Assembly: GCA_000934665.2 (NCBI GenBank)
Contig: KZ538055.1
Location: forward strand, 1 to 64,000
Direction: 5' to 3'
Length of the DNA: 64,000 nt
Origin: Catajapyx aquilonaris
Taxonomy: Eukaryota
How positions within the stretch are numbered: position 1 is the stretch's first letter; every line of letters starts with the position of its first letter. Of this stretch, positions 1-55,778 are shown piece after piece. The position numbers and the translations under genes are program-made. The notes beneath the pieces were generated by a model. The model was not told where the DNA came from, ran no database searches, and saw only the letters and a list, made by a program, of their open reading frames with translations.

Positions 1-220
1 GCTACCTGTAAACAGTGGCAACGCACGTGGCAACGACAGAAAGAACGCTAAGCACTCTCCACATGCCGATGTCCGAACACGCCCAGTTGCCAGGTAACGC
101 CAAAGTCGTTGTTTACACTTGTTATATGCTATTGTGTCCAGCACTGTACATAATAACTGTACTGGACGATTTGTGTGCAATGACAAAATATGTTTGTATA
201 GGCTGAAGAAATGCAATTAC

Positions 221-1154
221 CTTGAGGAATTCCGGTGGGTTCTTGAAACAGCCAACTCCAGGAGGAGTTCCAGTCAGGATGATGTCACCCGGAAGCAGCG
301 TACAGAACCTTAAAGATGATCAGATCAGTACGTAGCAATCAGTGCACTCGCTGGAGGCATGTTGACTTACTTGGAAATGAAAGCTACGATGGCAGGCACC
401 CCAAAGACCATCTTGTCAGTGTTTCCATCCTGCTTCATGACCCCATTGACCTTGCACCGGATGCCCAGCTTGTGTGGGTCTGGTATCCCTTCCTTGGTGA
501 CCACGGCTGGTCCGATGGGACAGAACGTGTCCATTGTCTTGCCCAGGAGCCACTGACCCCCGTTCCTTTGCAACTGCCATTCACGTGCGCTGACATCGTG
601 AGCCACTGTGTATCCAAACACGTAATCAAGCGCCTTGGATTCAGGCACATTCTTTGCTGCCTTTCCGATGACTATGGCCAACTCCACTTCCCAATCCAGC
701 TCGGATGTCAGGTCGGGATAGATCAAGTCATCTGAAGGTCCGCATATGGAGCTGGGGAACTTGTTGAATATCAGTGGCTCGGTCGGTATGGGCTTGTTCT
801 GTTCTTCGCAGTGGTCCTTGTAGTTCATCCCCACACAAACGACCTTGTCCGGTGATGTGATGGGAGCCAGAAGATGGACATCCTGATACTGCAGTTTGGG
901 TGCCGACTTCACCAAGCTGCCAAAAATCATGAAAACAGTTACGCTGCAAAACCCTGCCGTGTTGTGACTGACCTGTTGACCTTCCCCATGCATTCCCCAT
1001 TGTGCAACAGTTGGACCAGGCTGCTTGGTATGGCCGGGTCGGCCGCACACAGGTCAACAATAGGTCCACGCGGGCCATCCAGCTGCACCCCGACCTTAGG
1101 CGGACCTCCCTTAGACGTGAACTGCACAAACCGACTCATGGCCGTCCTCAGCAT
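221..1154 (-). CDS. FAHD2: Fumarylacetoacetate hydrolase domain-containing protein 2-like (3'-partial; coding exons 1154-973, 916-371, 308-221; final exon outside or at the edge of the window)
   Basis: The spliced translation gives MSRFVQF...[16 protein letters not shown]...[12 protein letters not shown]...[13 protein letters not shown]...[14 protein letters not shown]...[16 protein letters not shown]...[27 protein letters not shown], the FAA-hydrolase family motifs. GT-AG introns at 972-917 (56 nt) and 370-309 (62 nt) keep the frame, and there is a donor at 220. The start could be ATG 1154 or 1139. A likely 5'UTR intron lies at 1236-1165. Confidence 0.93.
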
Positions 1155-17717: not shown

Positions 17718-17879
17718 NNNNNNNNNNNNNNNNNNNNNNNNNNNNNNNNNNNNNNNNNNNNNNNNNNNNNNNNNNNNNNNNNNNNNNNNNNNNNNNNNNN
17801 NNNNNNNNNNNNNNNNNNNNNNNNNNNNNNNNNNNNNNNNNNNNNNNNNNNNNNNNNNNNNNNNNNNNNNNNNNNNNNN
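17718..17879. other. Assembly gap (162 N) following a poly-G tract
   Basis: Run of N characters. Confidence 1.
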
Positions 17880-21730: not shown

Positions 21731-22040
21731 TATAAGGGACGTGTGCGCGCCATACATACACGTGCACATACTCTGTACGCTCTCTTTTCATTTTTAATCT
21801 TTTCCACCCCCCTTAAAAAAAATTAATTCATCTCGGACCCTTCTCTCGCACCTTTTTTGATCCCTCAGGGAGCGATAGTACCAGCTGTAGTGGTCGGCCA
21901 GGTTTTCTTGGGGTCGGTGGGAGGGGTTGAGGTGCTTTTGGAGAGGGGGGGTGAGGGTAAGAGGGGGTAAGGAGGCAGGGGGGGGGGGGATCTCTCGGCC
22001 CTATTTAGCCGGTGTCTGCAGGTCTGCCACGGTCAGAGCG
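21731..22040 (+). promoter_or_regulatory. Candidate core promoter(s) of the tal/pri/mlpt transcript
   Basis: TATAAG at 21731. An alternative is TATTTAG at 22002 with an Inr-like TCAGA about 30 nt downstream (22033-22037), about 55 nt before smORF1. Which one is used cannot be decided from sequence. Confidence 0.45.
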
Positions 22041-22090
22041 ACGGGTCGTGTGCTCTGAGCCGGTACACCTTTCGCATCGTATACGCAACA

Positions 22091-22129
22091 ATGGGCGGGA
22101 AGACGTTAGATCCGACCGGGTTGTACTGA
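22091..22129 (+). CDS. tal: Tarsal-less/polished rice/mille-pattes micropeptide 1, MGGKTLDPTGLY (12 aa)
   Basis: ATG GGC GGG AAG ACG TTA GAT CCG ACC GGG TTG TAC TGA. It ends in the diagnostic LDPTGxY-stop motif and has a good initiation context (CAACAATGG). Confidence 0.93.
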   Translation: MGGKTLDPTGLY

Positions 22130-22156
22130 AGTTTTGGGACAAGAGCATAGCTGGTG

Positions 22157-22201
22157 ATGTCCAAGATGCCCGAGACGCTGGACCCGACGGGACTGTACTG
22201 A
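22157..22201 (+). CDS. tal: Tarsal-less/polished rice/mille-pattes micropeptide 2, MSKMPETLDPTGLY (14 aa; 11-aa MPETLDPTGLY if started at ATG 22166)
   Basis: ATG TCC AAG ATG CCC GAG ACG CTG GAC CCG ACG GGA CTG TAC TGA. This second LDPTGLY-stop ORF starts 27 nt after smORF1, and all differences from smORF1 across TLDPTGLY* are synonymous. Confidence 0.93.
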   Translation: MSKMPETLDPTGLY

Positions 22202-22238
22202 GAGAGCAGGTTGCCTGACTTCCTCCAAAGGGGACGAG

Positions 22239-22697
22239 ATGGCCACGGACGTATGGGTGTACCATCCGGAAGTGAGTTGGGCCTGCAGCACCTGCGATGA
22301 CCTGTTGTTCCCAGATGAGCAGGGAACTTCTTCTTCAATAGCCGGTGAGCATAGTATAAGAAGTGGAAGGGGGGAATGCTGGTCGTTGACCCTGTACTTC
22401 CGCGTTGTCACATGTCCCAACCAGCCGGTGTCGCTGGTCAGCCCAGGGCGGGTCGCACCCAGGGTTGGAAGGGAGCTGGGGCCGCCCCAGGGTGCTGGGT
22501 TGGAACTAGGGGCCGGTCTGGGGGCAGGGGCAGATGGGGCAAGGGCAGGGCAGTGGGAATGGGAGGGGTCGCGGGCCAAAAGCTGGCAACCGCGTCTTAT
22601 ATGCTGCCTTGTGTTTCTTCCTGGTTCGAATCGTACCTCCCAGCCCTTGCCCGTTTACTGGGTCACAGCTGCTCCAGCCCCGACCATTGCCAGGTAG
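22239..22697 (+). CDS. Possible third, motif-less ORF (152 aa) on the tal transcript; translation uncertain
   Basis: The ATG has a good context (GAGATGG) and lies 37 nt after smORF2. The ORF ends before the poly(A) signals. No recognisable homology; the central part is G-rich and low in complexity. Confidence 0.25.
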   Translation: MATDVWVYHPEVSWACSTCDDLLFPDEQGTSSSIAGEHSIRSGRGECWSLTLYFRVVTCPNQPVSLVSPGRVAPRVGRELGPPQGAGLELGAGLGAGADGARAGQWEWEGSRAKSWQPRLICCLVFLPGSNRTSQPLPVYWVTAAPAPTIAR

Positions 22698-22859
22698 ATG
22701 GTCAGTCGCAGAAATACCAAATTTGCAAGTGGATTCGCGTCAAAATGAACATTTTTGGTGGGGGTCCACACCACTGTTTTGGGCTCAGAAATGCGCCAAA
22801 ACGCCAATGCGCCAAAAAGACGTGTCTTTTACCTTCACCGATACGATTTAAGAATTATA

Positions 22860-22917
22860 AATAAAGTGATTTTTGATTGGTGTTGTTCTAGGCTTCGTAG
22901 CAAATAATGTGAATAAA
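22860..22917 (+). terminator. Candidate polyadenylation signals of the tal transcript
   Basis: AATAAA at 22860-22865, followed by a GT/T-rich tract, and again at 22912-22917. This implies an mRNA of about 0.85-1.2 kb. Confidence 0.6.
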
Positions 22918-23045
22918 TCAGTCAGTTTGCGAATTTCTGTAATTCTTGAGCGGGTAAAGCAGGATTTGCGCAAAATCATGGGCTCGACTTTAGACATGTT
23001 AATGGTTCAAGTAGTGACACTGTCATTGAAAAATAGCCTTTATAG

Positions 23046-23105
23046 GTCCAGTCATGATCGTAAAAGCAAATAAGGGTGTATTTCATTTTACGATCATGAC
23101 TGGAC
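23046..23105. repeat. Perfect 20-bp inverted repeat forming a 60-68 nt hairpin
   Basis: GTCCAGTCATGATCGTAAAA (23046-23065) pairs with TTTTACGATCATGACTGGAC (23086-23105); inner AAATA/TATTT pairing leaves a 6-nt loop. Confidence 0.9.
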
Positions 23106-26100
23106 GTATGTGAATTGCTGAGAGTGAATATTCGGGGGGTTTGGAGTAATTGCACGTGTTGAAATGGGCAACAGGTGGTGCAGTGCTCCAACTTGCGGGA
23201 TGTTGTTCATCCTAGCAACCTGTTTAATAAGGAAGCAACAATCTGGTTAAAATGGTTGCTCGATCGTTGGACTTGTGCCTGCCCCATATTGTTTGATTTG
23301 TGTGACTCCTTCGATTGGTGGCCCCCCCAATCACTGAATGAATGGTCTTGTGCGATTGCTGACTGCCTCCTTGGGTCTTGGCCGGTCATTCCCCTCGCCC
23401 TCGATCTCTCCTCGAGTGTGTATCACGTTCTTGAGACACTATCACACTTCTTGCACCATTCAGCCATTTTACCCTTGGCCAGCAGCCCCCTCGGATGTGG
23501 GACATGAATGTCGCTCGTTATTGTTTCAAAGCGTGACTCTACTTTTCGCCATTGATGGCACACCGGGGGGGAGGGTGTTGCGTAATTGACTTCACGGTGA
23601 CGTAATCCTCCAAGAGAGGTCAGTGGACCAAATCTGGCCTGGAGAAGAAAAGAGGAGTCCCTTTTTGCGGGGGAAGCCGTACCATTGACCTTTCAAGTGG
23701 TGGGTTTCGTCGAGCTTGCAAAATAATACTCTCGCGGCCAGACACATGACAGCCTTGGGGAGACCAGCTGAAAGTGAAGCTCACCCGGTCTACTATACTC
23801 TAACAGGGGTATGCAAGGCAGCTAGCTAGTTTGGGTTGGTTGAGAGATAGCACGAGGCAGCCTCAAAAAGTGAAAGTCCTGGAGGCCCCCCCCCCCCCCT
23901 TTTCTTCAGGGAGAGAGCTTCTGGACGGATTAGATCATCTCGATGCCCGATCGGTCCAGCTTCCTGTTCATTGCAAGGGCAGAGGAGCAGGCCAGCCAAA
24001 ATTAATGGAAATGCAGGCCGGACGACAATGCACAAATTTGCAATATTTAAACTGGGGCGTCTTGCTGCATTGGGACTCATAAATATTAAGTTCGCACAAT
24101 TTGTATTCAGAATTTTTTATGGGTCTCCCCACGCCAATTACTCGAAACGTAAACAAATTAATATGCTTCACTCATTCATAACTTCATTAATTGCATCCTT
24201 CTGAAAACTTGAAGTTTGTGTTTACAGTTTACTCGGCAGTTGATCGTAGCAGCATTTAAATACTTCATTTTCATTTAATGCCCTTTAAAATCCTGTTGAC
24301 TATTCATGCGCAGTACGGTTCTCTCTCTCTCTTTGTGTGTGTGTGTATGCAAGGCGATTACCGGTATCGGGTCTTTTTATCTCACATCCGGTTGATATAA
24401 CATGGGCCATTTTTGCTTTCAAATTTTTCCAAGAGGCTTCCAACTGACCCCAGCACGAAGCATCTGGCTACCGGAATTTTTCAAGTTTTCCTAGATGCAA
24501 ATTGGCCACGCTAAAATACAGTATTAAAGTTTCCTCGCTTGGCACATGATACCTTCCTCTTTTTATCCGGATTTTTTTTTTCGAACTAAAAAAAAAGTGG
24601 CGTCGTGAAAACCAGTGCAAGTGTCGCCCCATCATTCAAACACCCCTCTTTCCAGAATTGGTTTCTAGAAAACTGATTGTAAAGTAGGTGTTAACGGATC
24701 CCCTTGGGAACTTGGGGGATGTGCATAATAATGGATGGACTAAAAAAAAGCATCAACCTTTTCCTCTCAAAAAAATTTGAGGGGTCCTATGAGGTCATAA
24801 AGGATCAGTGAGACCGACGGAACAGGTTCCTTTTTTAAAGAGGGGGGGGGGGGTTAGGACAATTTTTTGGTTCCCTCCTCCTCCTCCTCGACAAGTAGGT
24901 TGGAACTCGATGTCAACTGGAAAATGGCGTAATAAACCGAGCAACCTTCTGCTGGGATTACAAAACAGTGCTCGAGCCTGCTAACCGGATGTGTGAGTTT
25001 TAAGATAGGGCTTGCTTGGGAGGGAGAGAGAGGTGGTGGTCACCCTGGTTTGGGGTCGAGGTCACAGAGGTTGCTTCCGGGTGTCCTTAAGTTTCGGCCA
25101 TATCCTTGAGACCCGATCGTGATTAGGTTCATCGCAGGACTATTAATACCTTAGTCATGCTGGATTGGCGATATCTTCGGGGCCGATCGCTTCTATACAG
25201 GTATATGGGTGGGAAAATTGCGATTTTTATTTTGCGTATTGGTAGCTGCTAGTGCTGGCGCAGGAAGTGGCCAAAAAATTCCATCGAACCAGTGACTCCC
25301 GGCGTTACGCCGTAAGTAATGTCGCAGCGAATTTTGCGGGTAAGGAAGTTGTGGGCTGTCGATAAGAGTGTATTGGACTACCGCCAAGGACGTTATGCAA
25401 ATGAGGATTGGAAAACCGAACAAATTAGAGTGGGCACCCGGGGCTTACCTGCCCTTGAGGGAGAGAGAGCCACTGACCATCCGCGTTCGGTTTTCTTCGT
25501 CTGTGACCCACTTTGGCCTGAATGTCCCTGACAGCTCGGCAAAGCAGATCAAAACATTGGCTTATTATTATTACAGGTCGGGGCGAATGAAGAATGCAAC
25601 TAAATAATGGCCTCCATGAAGGCTGCCATATACGACCTCTGTATATACAGGGCAGGGTCGAAGGTTAGGTCAGCGCCCCATTGGTGGCTGGGACGTACCA
25701 TTCTGTATAGTTTTGTCGGAATTTTACGAGATCCCTTTTTTGGGGCTCGATCTGAACGACCTTCCCAACGGGGACGTGCACACACATTACGTGCCAAAGC
25801 ACCCAAAAGAAAAAGAAAATTCCAGCCACGCGAGGTCGGATCTAAGGTCAGGGAAGGCCCCTGAGTGACCAGCAGCGCTATTCTTGGTTGGGGGGGAGAT
25901 GTTTAAAAAAAAAAAAACGTCAGGATTGTGGATGATTTGGATGATTGCCCCCTGCTTGAGGCCGTGGCCCCTTATCCAATCTAGGGGAACGTGAAGCCAT
26001 GCCAGGCGCTCAAGGGCTAATCTCCGCTAACTCGATCCGGATCCAACTTTCAATTGACACGAAACCGTTTTTTTTAAAAAAAGAAAACACGAATAAAAGG

Positions 26101-27099: not shown

Positions 27100-30000
27100 A
27101 GTTTCTATCGAAGTAGGTACTTGGATGCATCTTGTTTTGCCATGGCCTAGCAGTCGTAAAACCGGTTCTAAGCCAGTGTCATTGCATCATAGATGGCCTA
27201 ATCCCATCTCGGGACAATCTGAAGTTGTTGTTTCTTTGGCCGCCTGTAATTTAATAGACAATGGAAAAGGCCACTCAAAAATCGTTTAGATGCTTTTGCT
27301 GGTTACATGATCCAAATATTCCAGTGCTGATAAAATTTATTGATAATCGTGGGTTGATTTATGCCCTGTCTACACGAAGGGGTTGGGTAAAAAGATGGAT
27401 TGTTCACCTCTAGCTACCACAAGGAATGAAGCCATCTCCTACTACTGGAAGAATCATATTTGTTCGTCCATGGGTGCCAATACTGCATTTACCAAGTTGG
27501 AAGGCCTTCAACAATGCCTTGACGTGACAAATACGGTGTTGACAATCCAACCTCAATTAATGTGTAAATAGCTGCCTAATGCTGAGATATTGCCACCTCG
27601 CTGTTTACGTTGATGCAATTTCGCGAACGAGTTTGAATTTATGTACACAACAATATTGTGCCCATCCGCGATGAAGTCAGCCGGTTATTTTCAGAAGTAC
27701 GTCCCAGGAATAAACCGGCCGTTTTTTTTTCAATTATTAGCAAACACTGGCCACCTTGATTCCAAGCTTGTATGCAAAAATCCGCGCAGAGTAAAAAGGA
27801 CGCCTGGTCACCTATTTAGATGTTCCCTCGAAGGACACCCCGATTCTAACTTGGTAGTGCTGCTGGTTAGACAGGGCTGGACCAGTCTCGAGATATATAG
27901 GACCCCAACCAGCAGCCAGAGCTAATCCTTCATCTTTTAGCCATGTAATAAATAAGTGGACGGCCGGATCCTTGGGGGCCGCTGCATCCACATGAAAGGT
28001 GTTGCTATCAAGGTGACTGATCATAAATCAATAACCTTGTAGCTCTGGAGATTTTTTTTATTTAAAAAATTTGTTGTGTGTGTAGTTTGCCCCCGCATTT
28101 CCTCCATGCCGATGATATAATCCTCCCGGGGTCTCTCTTTGTTGGTTTTTTTTTGTTGTTGCTTCTTTTCCTCCTCTACCCCAGTTTGGTGTCAGTCGTT
28201 GCCCTCCGCTGTACCGTTACCTCCACTGCCAGGTTGTTGAACCTATATTCCATTGCTGGAGGCCACGGGATGGCCTACTCTGCAACGCCGAGGCTGCTGC
28301 GGCTTCTTCTTCTTCATTCCCCTCCGGACTGCCCACAGACCCTTACCACCCCCCCTCGGCCCAATGGCCTGCCGAAGCTCATTTTAAAATGAAAATAACT
28401 CCCATTGTTGCATGCACGCCATTTTAGAGCAAAAAAAGAGACCACCTTTTGGTTTCGAAATAACAGGTATTCCAGAAAATGAGGGGGGCCGTATTTGCAA
28501 AACCGGGATTTTAGATATAGAAAACAGCAGAGTGCCCAACAGCTGGTTATCTGGCTGCAACGCCAGGTGCGTTGCGTAATGATCATTTGCATAACTCCCC
28601 GGACATGTGTACTATAAGCTAGGGGAAATTCTTCTGGTTGTCCAGATTACATGACAAATGGATGCACAACCAGGAGTTGACACTATCTCTTGGCCTCGGA
28701 AGTGCAAATGCCAAAACAGTGATCATTCTCTCACAGTGCTCCGGACACACTGGAGCGTGAAGCGAATAAAAAAAAACTATTTGAACTCTTTGCACCGAGA
28801 CGCAACCGGTTTTGTTGTTGTTGTTCTGTACACTCATGACCTGTCTTGTTTCTCTTTCAAAGGTGCTGAAGACATTCGCGGCCAACACCATGGTGCCACC
28901 CGCCAGGTCAGGGGTCATCTTCATCCGATCCTGGGAAGAACGTAAGAACTGCAGGTACGTACAGGTGATCCAACATCACATTATATTATAGTTAACATTA
29001 CATTCAATGTACTTCTTACATTTCCAGGAGTAAACAACAACATGTCCTGATGAGCCACAACTGCATATTTTCTTGCATTTAGAGATGAATGGACACAAAA
29101 AAAAAAATGTTGGCACGAGTGGAGGGGACCAATGTCGACCAGATTCGGCGGCGATTGTGGACTATGGATGACCTGACTCGACTATCATAGTGTGTTTTTT
29201 TTCTAAAATATATATAAAAAGGTGTAGATAATAGGGCCTACACTTGTACAAAAGACTGATGATCCTGGTGACACCGTTGTGTAAGTTACCAAACCTCCCA
29301 AATCTCAATCCTTTTCCCCTCATCCGTATACCCATACCCGCCCCCATAAAAAGTTACATGTTATCAGGTTGCAACAGGGTGACTTGCCTTCAGATCTATT
29401 GTTTATTTTTTACTTTTCACCAGGTAGAAAAAATGCAATATTTTTTATTTATGATTTGTAGCCGTTTTATTTTTCCACGAAGATGCTCAAGAAAATAAAA
29501 TAACAATCGACTTAGAGAAAGAGAGCTCCAGTGAGAGTGAGAGAGAGAGAAAGAGAGAGAGAGTAAACACCAACAGCTTGGTTTACAATCAACAAGAAGT
29601 GTCACATTGGTGGCACCATAATAATGGATAATAATTTTAATAATATGCAAAATATACTGTATCAAAATGTGGTACCGTGCGATCATTGCAATATCGACAT
29701 CTGTGATATAACAATCCCCTAACTTAAGGTCTTAATCAAAGCCAACTGATCAACAAAACAAAAAATATTTTTTTGAAACAAATTTTGCGACTCTTTCTTT
29801 GCGGTGTCCGAATTTGTTTAGACAGCACCAATCTGCTATTACCTTAACCAGTGTTCGATGAAGTTGATGTGCGGTGTTTACTGTATAAATTTGAAAGGTT
29901 TATATTGGGAGAAAATAGGAAGTCTACTTGACACAAAAATGTAACACTAGGTGCAAGTTTTTTTCTGTATTTTTTTTCTTTTCCTTTTTTTGCTGGGAGT

Positions 30001-34748: not shown

Positions 34749-37700
34749 TTAATCGTCTCTGAATCGGAAGTCTAGGGCGGTGCTGAGCTTCCTCCAGAAC
34801 CGGAGCAGAGACATGTTGAAGGCCTCCTCAGGCAGGTACGGACAAGGCATGTCGCACGTACCCTCTCCGGAACCTTGCTCCATTGCTCGAAGGTACCGGT
34901 AGAATCGACTGGCCTCCTCCGCTTTCACTTGGGCTCGGTTCACCCTGAAAGGACGGACCAAGCACAATTACATCAGCACTGGACTCTCCCCCTCTCAAAA
35001 CCCCCAAAAACAGCCAGAAGGAAAAAGTGACCATTCCCTCTCTAGCCCCCCTCCTCAAAAAAAAAAGGACCCCCTCCTTCGTTTCCTCTTTTCAAGGCTG
35101 CAAAGGTACCGAAATTTTTCTTTGACACCACCCCACCCACCCCAAAACCCCAAGAGAGAGAGAGAGAGAGAGAGGTCTTCGCCCTCTTGTTTGTAACCCT
35201 GACCTTCAAGGGAGGGAAGAAGCCGGGACAAGACCTCGGAGAAGAAGAATTGGGGGAACCCTCCTCCTCCAAAGAGGAAGGAAGGAAGGAAGGAAGGAAG
35301 AGGAACCTTCCTCAAGTTCGAGCGGGAAAACATCTCCAGGCACTCACTCCAGACGCTTGAAAATTATCTCGCTGATTGGGTAGTACTTCTCCGGATCCAC
35401 AGACATCTCGCATATTATACGCTGCTGGCAGGTGTCTTCCGGAATCTGAAAAAAATGTGAATCCCAGAATTTTTTAAAAAGGAGACAATATCCATAATAG
35501 AGACAAGTTGACCTTGATCGTCAGTCAAATATGTATAGGAAACCTGCCAGGTCATTTGACTTGCGTAAAATGAGAGTGTAGCCAAAATATTTTTAGAATA
35601 TTCGCTGAGTGAGAGTGACTGGTTGCGGTTCTTGTGACTTCTCGACATGTGGACAAGCTGGTAAAGTGCACCAAAAACAATCCTCATGCTTCAAGGCCTT
35701 CCCCACAAGAATGGGGTTACAAGTGCTACAGGGTGGTCCTGTAATGCATAACAAAACGGTGTACACTCTCGCTCTCCATCTGCCCAAATGTCCCAACTGC
35801 TTTTGGAAGAAAAAAAGAAAAAAAAATGTGGGGTCAACGACCGGGCAGAGTGGTTGGTGGCAAAGGTGCAACATCGTCTGCTTCTGGAGGAGAAGAAGAG
35901 AGAGAGACCCCCTTCGACCAATGAATGGGGGCTCACAAAGCAAAAAGATAGTCATCCTTATCTATACACAGAATAATAAGGATAGAAAGAGGAGGAGGGG
36001 TGTTGGACAGATATTTTTTTTGTCAATATTTTTTTGGGGGAGGAGTGTGTGTTGTTGTTTTTTAAAATATCTTGGAGGGGGAAGCTTCTCAAGTTCTGTC
36101 ATGGAAAAAAAAGTGCGTGACTGCAAGTTCTCCCTCGAAGATGTAAGATTATCGGCTTTTTTATCCTGCTAGGATTAATAGGCCTGTTTCCACAACTGCG
36201 TTTTTATTCAAATGTATGTGTAGCACCCGGGAAATTTTTTTACACTGGATAATATATCGAAATAAAAATCCACGATCAGATTTTTCGGTCCAATATTATA
36301 GACAGCTGTCAATTCGAAAACGGCCGATTTCCCAGAGAAATGTTATAATTATCCACTCAAAAACTGATAAGGCTCGAAACCCCAATTACCAGGCGAGGTC
36401 GCTGGTTGTAACCAGTTTTATGACCGTCACTTGTCGCTTAAACTATCATTAGCACCTCTTAAGAGTGGTAGCGTAGGCTTTCAAGTCGCCCGTAATTCAT
36501 TGGCGGGGGCTTTTCGAAAGGAGAGAAAAAAAAAGTTTAAACAATTAGGCGTTGATTTCATTATCCCTGGAAGACTTGTCATAATTTCTTGCCAGCTCGA
36601 AAAGAGCCGTGCACTCTGCCAAGGACTCGAGTGCAACACGGTCACAAATAAAGCGAGTTATTGTTCGGGTGACGTGTCCGGTTGTCACCACTCTTTGTGG
36701 GTGATTGGTTGGGGGGTGGTGAAACAGAAAGGCTAGAGAGAAAAAGGTGGGTGGTTTTTAGTCGGTCGGAGTGGGTTGGGTGATGGCCTGCTGTTGTGAA
36801 GAGAAGGTCTTCCGAGGCCGTGGTTTAAGAGTGAGAGCGAAAAAAGGAGGAAGGTAACATACACACAAAAGGAAACCAAGAACTACTAGGGACCGAATAT
36901 CTCAAGGGCGAGTTGGGCAAGGTCAAAGGTTCCGATTGTTTGCGAGCTGTTATTCAGACAGGTGAATTTCTGACCTGCAGGTAGTCGAAGTAAGTTGTGA
37001 GTCTGTCCAACTCCACAGTGTACGAGGGGTCGTCGTAGCTGTCCACAGGGGGGTCAGAGGTCACGGGCTGGACGTCCCGTCTGTATCGCTTGCTGAAGTT
37101 TGGTAGGATAAATGACAGCGGGATTGTCACCAGCAGACCTGCAATAATTATTTTCTTTCCGTCAAGTAGTGCGTGTCATTACACCTGTGTAGGAGTCTTT
37201 CAAAAAATTGTCCTTGGCCGATCCTGTAATAATATTGATGTCACCGGCTGCCCACGTTATTGAAGCTGACACCCAGTCGAAATTAGGTTTTTCCCAGTCC
37301 AGCATGGTTACATGCAGAGATGTATCTTTTGCAGCATCAGAGAAGGTTAACCGGCTGACTGGTGCTACCGGACCGGAGTTTTTTTATTCTTTTTTTGCAA
37401 GCTGTGATTCGCCAAAGACCTTGCCAAAAGTCCTCCTCTCACTCGACTGGGACAGGAATTATTGCAATAGTGCAACAAACACCAGGCGGTGAAGCATTGG
37501 CCGCCCACATTACAAGTACCTACATTTCCGCCATAATTGCTTTGTATGTACAGTGGTTATGAATGGCCGCGGCCTTGGAAGGAACTTTTTTTTTTGCAAC
37601 TCGTAACTCAGTGCACAATAATGCATCGGGTGAATGAAGCCTACCAATGTCAATCGGCGCCTCGGTGTTGAAGTAGACGAACCGCTTTTGACGGTGACGA

Positions 37701-37768
37701 CCTTTCTCAGATGATGTGACAGGGATGATGCTCAGGCAGGTCACCAACAGGATGCTGCAAAAGTTCAT
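34749..37768 (-). CDS. Secreted DM4/DM12-like cysteine-domain protein, 193 aa; exons 37768-37645, 37138-36975, 35445-35348, 34944-34749
   Basis: Three phase-compatible GT-AG introns. The protein has a signal peptide MNFCSILLVTCLSIIPVTSS, then RQKR-FVYFNTEAPIDIGLLVTIPLSF, a second basic site KRYRR, and a domain ELDRLTTYFDYLQIPEDTCQQRIICEMSVDPEKYYPISE...SRFYRYLRAMEQG...C...CP. The exon structure is firm; the family label is by eye. Confidence 0.82.
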
Positions 37769-40445: not shown

Positions 40446-43400
40446 ATACATGGAATGCAGAAACTGAAGAGCGGCCAGACTTCCTCGTCCTCGGGCAGTG
40501 TCAGCAGCACCAGGTGTGCGAAAATTGCAACCAGCAGAAGACTCGTGTTTTCATTGCACCTCCGGAGCATGCTTGTCCTTCCAAGGTCACTCCCATTCAC
40601 CTTTTCCCTTTGCCGGGTTCAAGGAATCCGAAGAATCTGGATGATTGCAGGGAATTCGAAATTTGGCCACTGGCACACAGAGGAAGTGACCTTCGGGCAA
40701 GGGATGCTTGGTGGGCGGGTGGCCTTCTCCAGCTGATATGCAGTCCTTGTCCGAGCACATTGCAGTGTGTTGCACTTAGAGGTCATTGCGTTACATCTCA
40801 CAGATCAGTGTAAAACAAACCGCGCAGTTACTCACAGTCAAAATTGCTTGCAAAATATCATATATTTTACGTGGCGCAGCTGCAGGTGGCGTGGGATAGT
40901 AATATCGTTTGGAGGTCGTTGAGGCGAAATAAGTCCAAACTGTAAGCCACACTTGGCAAAAACAATTACAGATTATGAAATATCTCAGTGCAAACGAGCT
41001 GTCTCCATTGTTGAGGTTATGGACATCTGTTTGCCTGATGTGTGTGTGTGTGGCCATGTGAGCAAATGCAAACAAATTGCACAATGGAGTCCTATAGCCT
41101 TGGTGTGGGATTTGGGAAAACTACACGAATAGCTCAACCATACATGTAAACAAGCATTTCACCACTTTTCAGCACCAAAATGTCATTCCTCGATAAATTA
41201 TCGCGGGTTTTAAAAGTCACTCTCAAATTGCCGGGGAAAAAAGTCGAGCTCGTTGCTTTTCTCCGGATATTGGGAAATAATTCGAGTACATTTCTGCTCA
41301 TACAGTATATTACATTTCAACGGGTGTGTCAGTTGACGAAATACGTGGAAATGACCCCCTGGAACCCTTCAGATTGCTCCTGATTGGGAAATGAGCTAAT
41401 ACGTGCTAATAAGACACGAACTTCCTGCACCTTGGGCGGTGTATAGTTGTGTCGTAATAATCGGCAAAGTATTACCGCAGCCTCCGAGTGGGAAAGAGTA
41501 GTAATGAACCGTAACGTAAACACGAGTCGGTACCGTTGGAGTCATTATACTCCTCAGCATTGGTGCCCCCGGGGGGAAAAGCATCCTTCGCATGCACACG
41601 TTCTGTTGCTGTGTGTGTGTAGTCTATACTGCCACCAGTTATAACAGAAAAATGTTTTTGACATAACAAAACGCGAGTGTTGTGTAAGCCGGAAGAGACC
41701 AACTTCTCTCCAGAGAGAGTGTGTGGGTGGGTGGGTTGGTGGTGGTGGTGACCTGGCGCAATCCCAGTGGCTCATCGGACAGGTACGCGGAAGAAAATGT
41801 TGCGAGCGAAGAATAAGACCCGCCAGCACTTACTGGCTCCGGGCCTTCCTGCATTTTCATTCCCTCAACACTAGCAGGCTGCTGCTTGGTGCTACCTGCT
41901 GCAACACGTGAATGCAGCATGTACAACAGAGTGACACTTTGTTAGCACCTTGTACTTATACTCAGTGGCAGTAATACGCACTTAAATCCGCACTCACATA
42001 CGACCAGGAACTTATTGTATACAATACACACTGCAAATTTACCTTTACGAATTGTTACCTTGCAACCAGCTTTTATTGTCGAGGTGAGTTACCTTTATTT
42101 AATGGTAGAAATATTGCCCAAGTCCTGTATAAAGTAGCAGGCGAAAAGGTCAATCCTGCCCGGATATGAAACCCATTCTGGATGCCTAAAACCAGTTCCC
42201 GATATTCCCGAGTGACCTATACAGATTATTGTCCGACATTTATCTTCCTCTTTACATCCTTACTTTGAGGGGAAAGTCTCGAGTTTTTATAGTAGGAAGA
42301 TACATGACAGCTGGTCCTTGGTGTGAGGCTGATATCCTATAAACTATAAAGGTTAGAAGGCAAGGATCGGGAGGTCACCTCCAAAGAAGCTGCTGCTGGC
42401 CATGTGCTCGATGTTCCATAATGTTTCAGAGAAAACTCCGAATAGGCTTAAGTACCAGAGGGGCACTTTATGTACAGATGTCATCCGTAGCCATTTACTT
42501 AAATAATTTAAAAAAATAACGATGATAATGACATCTGTAGATAAATTGAGCTCATTCTTGTCGGAAACGTCCTGGACAGATTGTTTTGTTCGTTGGTTGG
42601 GCGCGGTGGTATTAAAAGGACTCTCAATTTCGGCAGGTCCTCCTGTAAATAAAAGAAGTGGTCAAAAAGCCTTTGGGAATAGCCCCCCCACTTTCTGAGG
42701 AGCCGTTACAAGGTTGGATATATTGCTGCATCGGATCTATTTCGAGGGCCCAAGGCGACGTCCACCAAGCCAGAAAATGGCCTGGCTTGGCTGCAATCAC
42801 TTTCGCCCTTGGGATCCGGAAAACCAAACTGCAAAGAGAGCGACAACAGGTTGTCTCGAAAAAATTTAAGCTCTCTGTGTATATTATACGAGGGGTGGAT
42901 TGTATTGGGTCGGCAGTAAAAGTGGAAAACGGTAGCAAAAGGACAATCGGGGCGCATCAAAGGAGAGCCCAAAGCCAGCAGGTGAAGGTTCTTTACCAGG
43001 GAGGGGGATTTACGACTTCCCTTCGTCACTTTCGGTAGGACCTAAGACGAGGTGGTCAGCCTAGGTTAGTGGGCTCAGGGGGGAATAATATAAGCTCTCT
43101 TCTCTCGATAGTTTATTTCGTTTCCGCAGGGGAGAGAGTGCTGGACACGGTGGGGGAGAGAAAAAGAAGACGAGAGGGAACCCTAAAAAGAAAGGGAAAA
43201 CAGGGTTTTTGACCAAAACTGAAACGTTGTATGGCCGCCTTTTTTGGGATCAGGTAGAACCCTTCAAAAATGCGGGGTAAAAGTAAAAACACCTTGATAG
43301 CCCCCCCGAAAGGGAGTCTCAACTGAATGGCTTTATTTATTTTGGTTGGTCCTCCAAAAGGCCCAAGAGTGAGTCATCCTGGAATGTTTTTTGGAGGCAT

Positions 43401-48677: not shown

Positions 48678-51600
48678 TCATTGATCATGGATGGTGGTGG
48701 ACTCGACGACCACCGGTGGCGTCTTCTGGGTGCCATTGTTGCTTCTGTGTGCGAATGTGCCGGAGGATGCTGGAAGGACCACGGACGATGGACCATTGTC
48801 GCGTCCGTTCCGTCGTCCGTCGCGTCCGTTTCCGATCAGCTCGCTCAGCTGGTTGTAGGTGTTGACCATCGGAAGGTTGGTCAGCTGCTCCGTGTCGGTC
48901 GGACACGCAGGGTACAATGAGAGGCATTCCTTGCCTCCCTGGCCGTCCTTGGCTGCCTTCATGTACTTGAAATACCGGAGAACCTGAGGACTGTTGCTCA
49001 CCGGACGCTTCAGCTCGTTCGGGTGCCTGGTCAGATAAAATGGACTGGATTTAGTCACTCGGCAATAATTAATCAGGAGGCGGAGAAATTATTACCTGGA
49101 CACCTGTGTACCAAATCATTGTTACAGTGATAATAATAGCACTGTCCAAATGAGTCCATATTTCAAGTGGAGTTGTAACCCTCGGCCTTCCTCAATGTTG
49201 CGTCATTGTATAACTGAATTATATAACAATGGGGGGCTGCAACTTTTGTATTAAAAAGCATTAAAGAGGGATGTGGAGGGTGAACTGGACCTTGCATGTG
49301 AACCATATTTCGCGATGCATGAAATTAGGTCTGCATGACACCACGGTACATGACTGTACCACTTTGCTTCACATGTTTGATGCGCAAGAAATAAGACAAG
49401 AAAATTAAAGAAGAGACAATGTCGGTGCGGGGACCCGCGTTTTTCTATGTGAATCCCCCCCCAATAAGAAGTAAGGGACATTTCGGAATCTGCTTACGTG
49501 AGGGTCTCATTCGAGTGCTTTAGTCACGGGTCATTCTTGTAGGTCACTTTTGTGGCCAAGTAATTTTCGCATTTATTATTTTTTGGCAAATTTTTTGGAT
49601 GGGCAACTCGTGGTCTGTAAAGAGTCTCGTCTGTCTTGGTGAGGTAATACGCAACACTAGTCATCCTGGCATTGAAGCATTAGTCCCTGTCTGGGGTGAA
49701 TTAACTCTTAATTACAGAGGACGCTTCTCTCAACACTGCTCTTCACGCTATCTGCTGCTGTTCAACCTCTGAGCAATATTTTCAACTGTGAAGTACGTGG
49801 CAGATAAATCTGAAACAAACGGTTCCGAAAACTCTGCGAAACACTCCTGAGAGAAGTGAATCTCATGTTAGAAATTGAATAGCCTGCCAATGTGCAATGA
49901 GAAGTAAGCAGTTTAGTGCTACATATGGTCATATTTGCATTAATTATTTCATGTGGTAGTGTAAATCAAATATTGCTTTGCTCCGGTAAATTCCGGTTTG
50001 CAGCTTATTGAATAGCCATGCGCTACACATTGTTGCGAATTTTAAAAAGGCAGCCGACTTACCAGGAGGTATAGGGTGAGAATTGAGATTGCAAACAACT
50101 TTTGTACCAAACACTGCGGTACTTTGCTGTACAGAAGGCTGTTACTTTTGGCCTGGAGTGTTACATTAGCATAGCCCGTTTTGTACCGCAAACACTGAAA
50201 GAATTATATGCCAGCTCATGCACTGGATTATTGCAATGGAATGTATATACCTGCTAAGTTGTGCACTGAGGAGATTGCTGTACGGGGCGTACTTGACTGG
50301 GAACTTGTAGATGCTGCATACCGCCCTCTCCCTGCATCCTTCCTCTTTGAATCCAAGGTGTGAGAAGATGGAGTCTATCCTGGACAAAAGGGGGCTGTAG
50401 AATGGGTCGAAGGAGTCAATGTGCAGCATCGACGGAGGGATCAGCTTGAATCCTTCCTCCTGCTGAGGCTGCTGGTGCTGGGGCTTGGCGTTGGCGGTCA
50501 GCAGCGGGAGGGTCAGGCTGGTGGGACCCTGGACGCCTCCGACGACGCCCCCAGGGCCCCCGCCTCTGACCTTCTCCATGAACTTGGCCAGGTTGGCCAG
50601 GTCATCCGGGCTGCGCGGAGGGTGATTCCTGACGTTTGGATTAGCAATGCCGAAGAACCCGGAGTCAATGGCCTGCTCGTTGATGTTCGTCCCGGACGTC
50701 TCGTGGTAGTCCGGATAAGGATGGGCGTAGTTTGGGATCTGAGGGCGTCTGTTCTTGGCGGCCTGCTGCTGGGCTGCGGCTGCGGCTGCGGCCACTGCGG
50801 CCAGGTTGTTGTGGAATGGGGAGTGGGCCTGCGGGTTGTGGTGAGTGGCCGCCGCAGAGAGGGGCCACCCTGCGTGGTCGTCGTATGCGTCCAGTCCTGC
50901 CCCGAGGCCGCCCCCGTGCAGAAGGTCCCCGTACCCTGCCAATGGGTCCTCGTAGTCTCCCACCCCTGGAGACATCAGGTCAAACAGGCTCTTCAGGGGT
51001 CCTCCGCCTCCAGAACCTCCGAACCAGTTGCCGAACATCATGGACTTGAGGCCGAACAGGATAGGGGTCATCATGCCCTTCATGGCCAGGAATACCAGGC
51101 CTATCGAAATACCCGCCACGAAGCTAGGTCCGGATGATAAGGCCAATTCTGAGGAAATAATTATTTTCATTAAACTTCACAAAATAACTTTTGGATGTCA
51201 CCTCAGGAAGGTGAGGTATTCACGTTCAACAATTTAAGGACTGGCGACAAAAATATTGTAAATGAAGTGCCATCAGTGCCCTTAATTCCTGAGAGTGTTG
51301 CAAGTCGTTACAGTCCAGCATCATGTAATGACTGCTGCATGACACGATTCACTGAGAACAATGCCGACTGCAATCACGTTTTGTCCGAGGGCAGTTTGGA
51401 TTCACTTAATAATTAATTACGTGGTGCTAATTACTCGACTCGACAATGTCACCTTTTGAGACCTCTGGAAACAGGTTTGGTTGCCTTTTAATAAGAAAAG
51501 ACAGGATAATAGTTTTTTGATGCCTCCAAGAAAATAATTCAACCTGACCTCTGGTTTGCAGCGAAACCAATTAAAAATCAAGTTGTATTACGGGATGCAC

Positions 51601-54600
51601 ACTCTTTAAGAATTAGTTTGAGTGGATTATTTTCTGCTCAATTTGAGTTTTTGTCCCAAGATGCAAAAATAAAATCATTTTCTCCGTCAATTTTAGTAAA
51701 GGATGAAATTTAAAAAAATATTGCCAGCATTTCATTTCTGAGTCAGTCGATAGACAAAATGCTATTAAAATACACTGGGTCTATTTTTAATTGGGAAAAA
51801 TTAAAATACCTCAGAATAACTTGCAAATTTTTCCTACGGAATGTGTCATGGGAATTCGCTCCCCAAGCAAGTAATCCATCAAGTTACACCCATCAGGTGC
51901 TCCCATTGCACTGGACTGTGTATGTAGCACCCTTTGCATTGTAAAAATTGGTGCCATAACACGTACATGATTATGCAAAAAGAGGAACCTGCTTTTTATT
52001 ATTCTGAAAAATTTTGTGCAGGTTCGCATGGGTTACCTCGGCCTAGATCGCGAAAGCCCCTTAACGACTGTGGGAATCCCACACACCTCCTTCCACACCC
52101 CCTCTGGAATAATTTCTACGCCATGTGGCCCAAGCATAACACGAATTCTGGCCATGTTTCGTGATGTGTGCCAAGTGTCCGGCCAACCATTGGCATTGTC
52201 TTACTTTGGCCGGAGTTTAACTCCAGCAACATACTTCCGCCAATAAAGGTTAGCTCGGGTCAAACCCTCCCATCTTTTTACACAATTAAACAATTGTTCC
52301 TTTCCTAATGTATACCCTTTTAAAGTAAATCTGCGGCGTTTCCAAAGGTTGGAAGGTCGGGACTTATTCCCACGCTACAACCTGGAATTTTTTGCGAATT
52401 CATTCTGCCAATTCAATGGCTTCATTTTTCATGGCCTGTTTTTTTCCACGTTAATTACTGCCAGGAGTTGTCTATTCAACAATGTTTCTATTTGCCTACA
52501 AATTATATTAAAAACAAAAGGCTGTAAAACAAGGCATAAAGCGGCAGATTATTTTCTTTGCGACTCGTTGCACCGACCGGATTTACTCTGTACATGTACT
52601 CATCATAAGCCTGAAGGGATTAGTTGCACTAATGGGATATGTAATCCGTCCTGTAAGCGTGGCAGAGAATAAATTCGGGAGGATTAAACCATTATTTAAA
52701 GTAAGTTTTTACACAAGCAGGTCGTGCAGTTATTCCGTTGTGTAGGTGATATTATTGGAGTTATAATTATTGCGCATGTGTCGCTTCGGATTGTTTATCT
52801 CATTAACCGTTTGAAAAAGAAGCAATGATAAATCACTATGTATGGAATGTGGTCATGATTTATTGCTTCCCAACGGGGTTGCTGCTTTTCCAAGCCGATC
52901 GAGTAAACAATTCATAACTTTTCTCTCACCCTATTCTTGCATTATGAACACGGGCAGTACACTTATCCTGCATATTGTTCGCAAAGAATTATTATTGCTG
53001 CGATGTGACAATCTGAGTACATTGAATATCACGTCGCCGACAGTAATTATTCATCAACGAATTTCCTACTCTGGCCTCTTCGTTAATAATAACTTTCTTG
53101 GGTTACACATCAAGGAAATCATATTAATTGGCCATGTAACAAGATGCCTTAATGAAAAGGATGGCTGGCATATGTGCTGCTTGAGCCTGTGCTGATTAAC
53201 CCGTGGCCATCATGTGCCCCAGACTGAGACTGCTCGGTGCAATAATTGGTTTAATCTCGCTTAAATAACAGTAAAAATCTGGGCGATGAGAAACGTTACG
53301 AGACACCCGCAAAGCAATCATTATGTACGTGGTCTTGCATGGTGAACCTGACTTGCCTGGCGTGGTCAGTTCTCGTTCTTTCCAATGCCAAGAATGCCGG
53401 TTTTGATGTGCAAGGTTACAGTTCTCTCTCCTCCTCTTGTAACAGTTTGTTACGGTTAGTCAGCGATCGGAACTACCATCAGCCTGTCAGTCCTTGATTG
53501 ACTTCTGAGTTTACTTTTGCACGGAATAGCACGTGGTATACCATTACGATGCATGCGATTTTTCAGACCCAACTTCAGGATATCGGTGGATCGTTTTACC
53601 CTCCTTAGCCTCATCAACCTGATTATTACGATTCAGTAATAAAAGAAATACCACCTAGTGGTATGTAGCGGAAAGATATTATCGGCAACTAAGTGATATG
53701 TGCAATAAAATTACAGCTTTAAACAAATTGAAACCCTGATCAGTATTGTAACTGAAAATACTCCCAGAATATTTTGGTTTTTAAATATACATTTTGAATC
53801 TATAGTGCCAAAAACCATCATATTTGCAACGAATCTCTTCATATTTTAATCTACCTGGCTAGGAGTTCATTGTAGAATTTTTGTTTTAATTAATTTTAAA
53901 CACCTTGCCCGTATTGTTGAAGGTGTTTACAGGGTGCGAGACCTTGTAGTTAACGTGCAGTGCTGTCCATCCCCCAGCAAGCAGCGCGAATAATAAATAT
54001 TGCATGGACGTGTGCGTGTCCAGTGCCTAACTGCGCTTTCAACCCTTTGGATTCTCAGTTTTTCCAGGTTAAACCAGAAGTTTGCATCATACGTTCATTC
54101 GAACCATTGTGGACGTGTCTTAATTAACACCCTTCGCGTTGCAGTGTAAGATCGGTATCCACTCCTTAGCTGACATGCTCTTGGTGAAAATGTATTCAAA
54201 TATTCTCACAGTACCTGTCAGAGTATGAAATGCTGAGCCCGTTCTGCAGTTAAAAATTACATGAAACTATTGTACGCAACTAAGGCATATCAGAGGTAGC
54301 ATATGAATTTACAACAGTTTCATTCAAAACACAATTATTTTGGCTATTATTAAATACAGGCTAGAAAACCACTTTGACATGAAAGAGAATTGAACAGGGA
54401 TTTGGAAGAAAATAATGTTTTGGAGCCAAAGTTTTCTTGTGAATTATGTTGCCAGCATATCTCACTTGTTGACCGGGTAAAAATATATTGTATATCTGCA
54501 ATATTTTCATGTTTTCTGCCTGGTATGACCTATTAGAGCTTTCGTAATATTATTTATGCAGCGCTAATAACTAATAAGACAAATAATGTCGGTGGAAATG

Positions 54601-55778
54601 GATTGTCTCTAACAGTGAAGCTTATATGGAGTGCAAACATTCTTATCAATTATAATATTTGTTATAAGAATCTCATAATTATGCCATTGCTCCACTCTAC
54701 ATGTTATTAGACCAAGGATTCAACCAATCCTATCAATTCATTAATTAACAGTAAATGTAAATAAAGTAAAAAAAAATATTTGGTCGAAATCTACCTGCCC
54801 TTAATATACTGTTTTGCCCTCAACAAGATATTTCTGGCTTCTACTTAGATACGCCCAATATTTCACATGTAAATCACATCCCTGGGCATTCTTGTTAGCC
54901 ACATTGTTGCCATTTTAAGTGTGCCCAAGTACGCTTCATACGGGAAGTTTACGCAAAGGCGACGTGCCGCATTTTAAACGTCCTGAATGCTGCCGGTTTG
55001 CGAGGTTGACGAAAGACCCACTTTTACTAGTAACACAAATTATTACTTTTTCAATTATATTCCCTGACAAAAAGCCAATAACTTGTAGGGCAACGAGGCA
55101 TGAAATATGGCACGTGGTCCATTCGAGGATGGCACCAACCTACTTTGGCCAGCACTTTCACCGGGTCCTCGTGTTGCTCTACACACACTTTAACACAGTG
55201 TCATCTCGTGGAGGTGTGGCTTTATACTCACTGAACTCATCTTTGAAGAATGGGACCTTGACCCGGAGGTGGAAGCCAGGGTCGATCATGGTCCTGGCCA
55301 TCTGAGGCAGGGCGAGTCCGACCGATGCGTTGACCACCCTGGGCACCTGCACTTTCAGCACGTGTGTGCCCAGGAACTCCTGGATCCTCCTGAACACCAG
55401 CTGGTCTATGGTGTCACCGTGGTTCTTGAGGAACTCGGGCAGAGGGTAGCTCATGGTCCCGCGACCCCTGCCCGTAGTCACCTGCTGCTGGTCATCTTGC
55501 ACTAATGACACGAAGCTGCCCAGCGGGATCGTGTCCCTATCCAGGAAGTCCGAGATCATGGAGGCCAGCACCACCTTCTTGCAGAAGAAGGTCTCCTGCT
55601 TTCCTTCTCCCGAGCAGGACTTGCTGGTGGCCCTCTGCAGGTACCTGAGCGTGCCGTGAGCTGACTTGCCATGGTCTCCGCACAGGTGATGACTATTCAG
55701 CTTGCACTTGACGTACCTGGCCGGTACCGGTGCCAGCAGGAAGAGGCCCAGGAACAGTAGAGATAATACGCGAGACAT
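48678..55778 (-). CDS. Osiris family protein, Osi17-like, 597 aa; exons 55778-55232, 51148-50251, 49026-48678
   Basis: Two phase-compatible GT-AG introns (phase 1 and phase 2). Features in order: signal peptide MSRVLSLLFLGLFLLAPVPA; two-Cys region CSGEGKQETFFCKK...DFLDRDTIPLGSFVSLV; DUF1676-like DQLVFRRIQEFLGTHVLKVQVP; hydrophobic segment FVAGISIGLVFLAMKGMMTPILFGL; C-terminal FDPFYSPLLSRID...CRERAVCSIYKFPVKYAPYSNLLSAQLSR...RYFKYMKAAKDGQ...CLSLYPAC, which matches my recollection of the Osi17 C-terminus. A small additional exon inside intron 1 cannot be excluded. Confidence 0.8.

Follow-up and report, generated by a model that had tools for sequence, protein, structure and literature searches.

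Is the Osiris gene family confined to insects, or does part of it predate them? The family, which is linked to cuticle formation, was defined as insect-specific, with weak Osi17/Osi24-like expressed sequence tags (ESTs) recorded in a springtail and in crustaceans (Shah et al. 2012, PMC3284338). Later papers describe Osiris or DUF1676 as absent from Collembola, crustaceans and other non-insects, and an account of the family as an 'insect innovation' has been built on that absence (PMC12825958; bioRxiv 10.1101/2024.02.06.579014; bioRxiv 10.1101/444729). A literature search turned up no paper describing a complete Osiris gene from a hexapod outside the insects. The question is raised anew by a gene on the minus strand of contig KZ538055.1 of Catajapyx aquilonaris, within the 64,000-nucleotide (nt) stretch of DNA analysed here (the window). 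This gene is probably an intact Osiris gene in which, as in one subtype of the family, DUF1676 is combined with a four-cysteine DM4_12 domain; it groups in a clade otherwise composed of springtail proteins, and its closest counterpart within insects is Osi24. A topology and a function are proposed further below by analogy. Its exon structure, domain order and relationships were established here, as follows.

The gene comprises three exons, which were joined by script and run from 55778 to 48678 on the minus strand. Their 1794 nt remain in frame from the start ATG (55778-55776) to the stop TGA (48680-48678) and encode a protein of 597 amino acids (aa); both introns are of the GT-AG type, in phases 1 and 2. 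The first-pass annotation had given the same coordinates and 597-aa model, and both were reproduced exactly. The features of the gene are:

55778..55232, minus strand: coding part of exon 1, with the ATG, signal peptide, two-Cys region and N-terminal part of DUF1676; phase 1 at its end, with GTGAGT next
55778..55716, minus strand: predicted signal peptide, approximately residues 1-21, by Kyte-Doolittle hydropathy only
55616..55581, minus strand: two-Cys region, Cys55 to Cys66, by alignment to relatives
55601..55329, minus strand: DUF1676 match (Pfam PF07898), residues 60-150
55231..51149, minus strand: intron 1, 4083 nt, GT..AG
51148..50251, minus strand: exon 2, encoding the hydrophobic segment and, beyond a linker rich in Gly, Ala and Pro, the first half of a DM4_12-type domain; it ends in phase 2 and is followed by GTATAT
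51146..51030, minus strand: hydrophobic segment, residues 184-222 (about 39 residues), by hydropathy and sequence, with Lys-Gly in mid-segment
50453..50251, minus strand: first half of the DM4_12-type domain, residues 415-482 (Cys454, Cys460), scoring 97.1 bits against a profile of our own built without the gene
50250..49027, minus strand: intron 2, 1224 nt, GT..AG, which interrupts the DM4_12-type domain
49026..48678, minus strand: coding part of exon 3, with the remainder of the DM4_12-type domain (up to 48837; Cys516, Cys523), the tail and the stop TGA

The encoded protein has the full architecture of an Osiris protein that had been proposed for it, namely a signal peptide (as judged by hydropathy), a two-Cys region, DUF1676, a hydrophobic segment and a C-terminal domain. 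Its N-terminus is hydrophobic over residues 1-23, which score 1.6-1.8 in 19-residue Kyte-Doolittle windows. Cysteines occur at positions 25, 33, 55, 66, 454, 460, 516 and 523; Cys55 and Cys66 align with a cysteine pair in five relatives (P0001, P0012, P0019, P0067 and P0099), and P0025 shares the second column only. The hydrophobic segment could be either a single membrane span or a hairpin of tandem helices, to judge from its length and sequence, and it closely matches that of springtail-type proteins in the printed alignment segments. Sequons are present at Asn150 and Asn579. The protein contains no run of three or more Lys/Arg residues, in keeping with the earlier observation that it lacks a Lys-rich stretch of the RGKKKK type.

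Assignment to the Osiris family was made with the Pfam profile for DUF1676 (PF07898), a check that the first-pass annotation had proposed. The exon-1 open reading frame (ORF) matches this profile over positions 4-93 of 170 with E 7.2e-10 and 39.6 bits, above the gathering score of 24.3. The FLGTHVLKV motif, residues 135-143 (55376-55350, minus strand), falls inside the match. In an initial word-based search, exon 1 had given no match to longer proteins. Two scans covered the window: a Pfam scan of every stop-to-stop ORF that reached 60 aa and was free of X (407 in all), and a scan of 2171 ORFs of at least 20 aa with an N-terminal profile built from 90 full-length relatives, the gene itself left out. 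Exon 1 was the only one of the 407 ORFs to match DUF1676 and the only one of the 2171 to match the N-terminal profile at E<1, giving no second DUF1676 and no second Osiris N-terminal region in the window. The spliced model scores 163.3 bits against a C-terminal profile and 46.7 bits against the N-terminal profile, both built without it.

The C-terminal domain ties the gene to one particular subtype of the family. A set of 1.84 billion representative proteins was searched with exon 2 by itself (298 aa); the P-numbered relatives referred to throughout come from such searches. Matches numbered 181 at E<=1e-3, 130 of them at E<=1e-10, with a best E of 3.9e-33; the similarity is therefore far above chance. 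Nearly all matches are confined to the last 55-85 residues of the query. In a Pfam scan (E<=0.001) of the 45 longest relatives, 25 carried DUF1676 together with a C-terminal DM4_12 domain (PF07841), seven DUF1676 only, 10 DM4_12 only and three neither family, and the C-terminal domain that had been called 'Osi17-type' is therefore DM4_12. The domain itself is thus real, though the label is not specific: in Nilaparvata, according to one study, DM4_12 with its four conserved cysteines is carried by Osiris17 (680 aa) and Osiris24 (478 aa), and by no other Osiris protein (PMC12825958). All four domain cysteines of the gene (454, 460, 516 and 523) fall in invariant columns of a 78-sequence alignment, and the exon-3 half scores 56.0 bits against our own C-terminal profile. 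An AlphaFold2 model of the domain of one homologue, P0011, made with a 78-row alignment, is a small helical bundle (mean predicted local distance difference test score 80.0). Foldseek searches of the Protein Data Bank with this model returned nothing at E<=0.001 (best 0.98), and the highest Z in a VIA-align comparison with 48,161 chains, 4.6, is too low to be meaningful for helical models. Two unnamed proteins, P0124 (925 aa) and P0128 (712 aa), have a related C-terminal domain (DPFYGP...) and lie near the springtail clade in the larger tree described below. They were rejected as Osiris proteins, having no similarity to either of two N-terminal profiles of the family and no Pfam family at E<=0.001, and may instead represent a third architecture that uses a DM4_12-type domain.

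The nearest relatives of the gene are springtail proteins. The best, P0001, is an unnamed 604-aa protein of Allacma fusca, followed by P0151, of 394 aa, from Orchesella dallaii. All three exons are colinear with the Allacma protein: in BLASTP, exon 1 aligns at 25% identity over 163 aa (63.5 bits, E 2e-16) up to the end of the exon, exon 2 at 78% over 72 aa (E 1e-34) and exon 3 at 67% over 64 aa (E 7e-29). This protein exceeds the Pfam cut-offs for both families (DUF1676, 26.1 bits; DM4_12, 25.0 bits), and differs from the gene product in that about 60 additional residues separate its signal peptide from its two-Cys region. Over 104-115 columns of the domain, the gene shares 74.8% identity with Allacma and 68.5% with Orchesella, and the two springtails share 71.3% with each other, less than the gene shares with Allacma. 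In trees that compare only two DM4_12-bearing groups and are effectively unrooted, the three sequences form a clade with support (Shimodaira-Hasegawa-like approximate likelihood ratio test) of 97 among 107 rows and 98 among 54 rows; with eight unnamed fragments added, the resulting 11-row clade has a support of 100. Unnamed springtail-type fragments (P0002-P0009) stop at the 3' boundary of exon 2, and the position of the intron therefore looks conserved. Several of them, P0002 and P0004 included, also start near the 5' boundary of this exon, which in the Osiris gene is directly preceded by a pyrimidine tract and AG. The first-pass annotation had guessed at an early-branching hexapod or a non-insect arthropod, and the nearest relatives, from springtails (non-insect hexapods), bear this out. 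Judged from this one gene family, the host would be a springtail or some other hexapod that is not an insect.

Within insects, sequence comparison places the gene closest to Osi24, and not to Osi17 as first supposed. A search with the C-terminal region of the Allacma protein gave 65 matches, in which the two springtails are followed by insect proteins at 43-54% identity. Eleven matches are named Osi24 (Nesidiocoris, Apolygus, Rhodnius, Chelonus, Sergentomyia, Rhynchophorus, Euwallacea and four Diabrotica isoforms) and none Osi17; the Osi24 proteins, at 43-53% identity to the same region, are the nearest named relatives. Overall, the relatives fall into two sets, an Osi24 type of about 380-530 aa and a longer set mostly of 450-860 aa, the latter with His-rich linkers and strong DUF1676 scores (58-108 bits, against 39.6 for the gene). 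Domain identity to the gene is 55-59% for the Osi24 type and 44-53% for the longer set. In the 107-row tree, the springtail-type clade, together with two long-branch proteins, adjoins a clade of 70 rows in which every named Osi24 protein falls (support 96), so that the gene groups next to the insect Osi24 clade rather than inside it; in the 54-row tree, the longer set forms a clade of its own (96) from which the gene is excluded. The N-terminal region agrees: against profiles built from 55 Osi24-clade and from 27 longer-set proteins, the gene scores 35.6 and 4.7 bits and the Allacma protein 29.1 and 2.6 bits, respectively. Finally, a tail of about 17 residues after the last cysteine is present in the gene, the springtail proteins and the Osi24 type, whereas the longer set stops at about profile position 114. 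Names, identity, trees, N-terminal profiles and tail thus all favour Osi24.

Insect Osi24 proteins, such as Drosophila melanogaster CG15589 and Nilaparvata lugens Osiris 24 (478 aa), have the same domain order as the gene: signal peptide, weak DUF1676, hydrophobic segment, linker, four-Cys DM4_12 and tail. The gene differs in its length, 597 aa against about 380-530 aa for most Osi24 proteins, and in having a Gly/Ala/Pro-rich linker. The longer set (P0059, P0067, P0099 and others) is presumed to be Osi17. It is set apart from the gene by its stronger DUF1676, His-rich linkers, want of a tail after the last cysteine and separate clade, though the DUF1676 + DM4_12 architecture of Nilaparvata lugens Osiris 17 (680 aa) is that of the gene (PMC12825958).

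A second gene with a DM4_12-type domain, absent from the first-pass annotation, follows the Osiris gene on the same strand, 11 kb downstream. Its features, from our own model, are:

37768..34749, minus strand: stand-alone DM4_12-type gene, five exons, 253 aa
37768..37645, minus strand: exon 1, by sequence inspection only
37364..37185, minus strand: exon 2, by sequence inspection only
37138..36975, minus strand: exon 3
35445..35348, minus strand: exon 4
34944..34749, minus strand: exon 5

Two of its ORFs were found with the C-terminal profile among the 2171 scanned (35520..35347, E 1.4e-6; 34967..34752, E 0.0026; both minus strand), and its last three exons, once spliced, reach 54.4 bits (E 1.6e-15). 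No stop interrupts the full model, whose four introns are all GT-AG; in BLASTP it matches the Osi17/Osi24-type set at E 1e-14 to 2e-11. The protein has a signal-like hydrophobic N-terminus and four cysteines in the domain; neither DUF1676 nor a long hydrophobic span was found in the 253-aa model. The last intron of this neighbour coincides with intron 2 of the Osiris gene in both domain position and phase. Stand-alone DM4/DM12 proteins (PF07841) of this kind share with the gene the four-Cys helical domain and the position and phase of its intron, but are small and of secreted type, DUF1676 and the long hydrophobic segment occurring only in the gene.

A topology and function can be proposed by analogy with insect Osiris proteins. 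Osi23 is described as localized to endosomes and near the apical membrane, with predicted tandem transmembrane helices (bioRxiv 10.1101/444729), and Osi9, Osi15 and Osi19 are likewise reported to be endosomal (PMC9870157); fly Osi17 and Osi24 are essential, with lethal knock-outs, according to another study (bioRxiv 10.1101/2024.02.06.579014). By extension, the product of the Catajapyx gene would enter the secretory pathway via its signal peptide and be anchored by its hydrophobic segment in membranes, endosomal or apical, of the epidermal cells that secrete cuticle, where it may help to traffic or shape membranes as cuticle is deposited. The hydrophobic segment would be a helical hairpin rather than a single span. 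This form is favoured because of the Lys-Gly break, the four invariant cysteines and the occurrence of DM4_12 in a secreted-type neighbour, whose signal-like N-terminus and lack of a long span fit an extracytoplasmic DM4_12 domain. With a hairpin, DUF1676 and the disulfide-type DM4_12 domain would both be luminal or outside the cell.

The remainder of the window holds two further recognizable genes:

125-1053, minus strand: FAHD2-like gene, with a 228-aa ORF (FAA_hydrolase, E 1.3e-53) and a further exon at 125-319
3579-4063, plus strand: two exons of an M17 (leucyl/cytosol) aminopeptidase (Peptidase_M17, E 2.2e-18 and 5.3e-14), which together span positions 60-180 of the 310-position profile

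The best named relatives of the FAHD2-like protein are from echinoderms, molluscs and vertebrates (59-70% identity), with Orchesella at 66% and the eukprot record Tk05324 at 64%; no insect occurs among the named matches in the best 120. It had been proposed that this gene be used to place the species. In a FastTree phylogeny of 121 rows the window branch is long (0.63) and joins no supported group. FAHD2 is uninformative for placement because it is too conserved, several phyla all lying at 59-70%. Elsewhere, the window contains two domain hints below their cut-offs, one of TILa at 28979-29161 on the minus strand (21.9 bits, cut-off 27) and one of C8 at 40923-41129 on the plus strand (16.8 bits, cut-off 23.7). 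Being on opposite strands, these may be due to chance or may be fragments of a gene for a Cys-rich extracellular protein. The most GC-rich part of the window (0.52) is at 22000-24000, where overlapping ORFs of 110-180 aa on both strands (22036-22861) have no Pfam match. An assembly gap of 162 N at 17718-17879, which indicates that the window comes from a scaffolded draft, is accompanied by single N at 7870 and 47413. Sequencing runs listed as containing this DNA are four DNA runs from one sample, with no RNA run among them.

Several observations weigh against the identification of the gene as an Osi24-type Osiris with springtail affinity. Taken separately, the exon-2 and exon-3 halves of its domain fall below the Pfam DM4_12 gathering score of 22 (13.6 bits, E 0.11, and 12.8 bits, E 0.21, respectively). 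The AQxLAY motif listed for Osiris has no regular-expression match in the gene or in the Allacma protein; the same pattern matches 0 of 68 Osi24-clade and 0 of 34 longer-group proteins, and the motif is therefore not defining for the DM4_12-bearing subtypes. The position of the gene inside the springtail clade has a support of 83 or is a polytomy. All 10 springtail-type sequences have an insertion of two residues before DPFYSP that the gene lacks, and at this site it has the insect length; an SPFD-type motif that the springtail-type sequences carry after the hydrophobic segment is likewise missing from it. The springtail affinity is inferred from one gene family, and the topology and function from published insect Osiris proteins. 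As for the comparison with Osi17, the longer set is presumed to represent it by elimination, its annotation reading only 'hypothetical protein'. Rooting with the neighbouring DM4_12 gene produced an outgroup branch of 9.9 that joined other long branches. The trees are hence in effect unrooted, and in them Osi24 orthology is therefore indistinguishable from descent that predates the split between Osi17 and Osi24.

This last point gives rise to one of the two alternatives that survive best, namely that the gene descends from a single DUF1676 + DM4_12 gene that predated the insect Osi17/Osi24 duplication. It would then be a co-orthologue of both, of founder type, and its likeness to Osi24 would reflect slower change in Osi24. 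The trees effectively show three groups at one node, without giving the order of the splits, and the only similarity noted in springtail and crustacean ESTs was Osi17/Osi24-like (PMC3284338). A local origin of the fused form would also be in keeping with the stand-alone DM4_12 gene 11 kb away, whose intron position matches. However, the N-terminal region and C-terminal tail are specifically Osi24-like, which is more simply explained by orthology, and a founder of this kind is accordingly the less likely explanation.

The second alternative concerns the setting of the gene, which the first-pass annotation had described as solitary and outside any Osiris cluster. The absence of other Osiris genes nearby is borne out by the two ORF scans, which detected no further DUF1676 signal on either side of the gene (8.2 kb 5', 48.7 kb 3'). 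The description as solitary was nonetheless overstated, as just 8.2 kb of 5' flank is visible. An ordinary Osiris cluster could thus extend past the edge of the window, with the 5' side the likeliest place. In D. melanogaster, Osi24 sits between Osi1 and Osi2 (PMC3284338), whereas the neighbours of the gene within the window are not Osiris genes. In the table rows consulted for Nilaparvata, Osiris neighbours are 15-110 kb apart; about 110 kb separate Osi24 from Osi20, and more than 5 Mb separate Osi17 from Osi16 (PMC12825958). On these spacings, 64 kb without an Osiris neighbour is therefore not unusual even in an insect. Besides the lack of DUF1676 signals in both flanks, such a cluster is opposed by the published statements that Osiris does not occur outside insects, though this locus casts doubt on them. 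Such a cluster appears somewhat doubtful: the window shows no Osiris cluster but is too short for its exclusion.

It is distinctly improbable that the window derives from a true insect or from foreign DNA and that the springtail affinity is misleading. Such an origin would accommodate the insect length of the gene at the DPFYSP site, and FAHD2 gave no placement. Against this stand the support for the springtail clade (97-100), the higher identity of the gene to Allacma (74.8%) than of Allacma to Orchesella (71.3%), the close match of the hydrophobic segment to the springtail type and, as weak evidence, the lack of insects among the named matches in the best 120 for FAHD2. Least credible of all is an Osi17 orthologue that left its cluster: although Osi17 also combines DUF1676 with DM4_12 (in Nilaparvata; PMC12825958), the FLxTHxLKV-type motif of the gene matches five of 34 longer-group proteins and 0 of 68 in the Osi24 clade, and a length of 597 aa is nearer to the longer group (mostly 450-860 aa) than to most Osi24-type proteins (380-530 aa), the gene lies outside the separate clade of the longer group (96), scores far lower on its N-terminal profile (4.7 against 35.6 bits), has lower domain identity to it (44-53% against 55-59%) and shares its C-terminal tail with the Osi24 type only, while the 65 matches include 11 proteins named Osi24 and none named Osi17.

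If the gene is an Osi24-type Osiris, as seems probable, then it and the springtail proteins date this branch, at the least, to before the insects; on sequence grounds, at least the Osi24-type branch seems older than insects. The locus corrects a repeated claim, that Osiris occurs only in insects, rather than revealing a new system. The advance is modest, since weak Osi17/Osi24-like ESTs had already been noted (Shah et al. 2012, PMC3284338), and the springtail orthologues were already present, unnamed, in public protein sets. What the locus adds is an indication of which Osiris member is oldest, together with a concrete gene for asking whether the cuticle-shaping role predates the cluster and on which side of the membrane DM4_12 acts. 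More tentatively, the founding member of the family may have been an Osi24-type gene older than insects, which arose beside, or by fusion with, a stand-alone secreted-type DM4_12 gene resembling the present neighbour at 11 kb, the 20-gene cluster of insects having then formed through duplication and loss of DM4_12. Springtails and their kin would in that case carry only one Osiris-type gene. The springtail cuticle is strongly nano-patterned, and the link between Osiris and cuticle nano-patterning would become testable in animals in which such patterning is pronounced.

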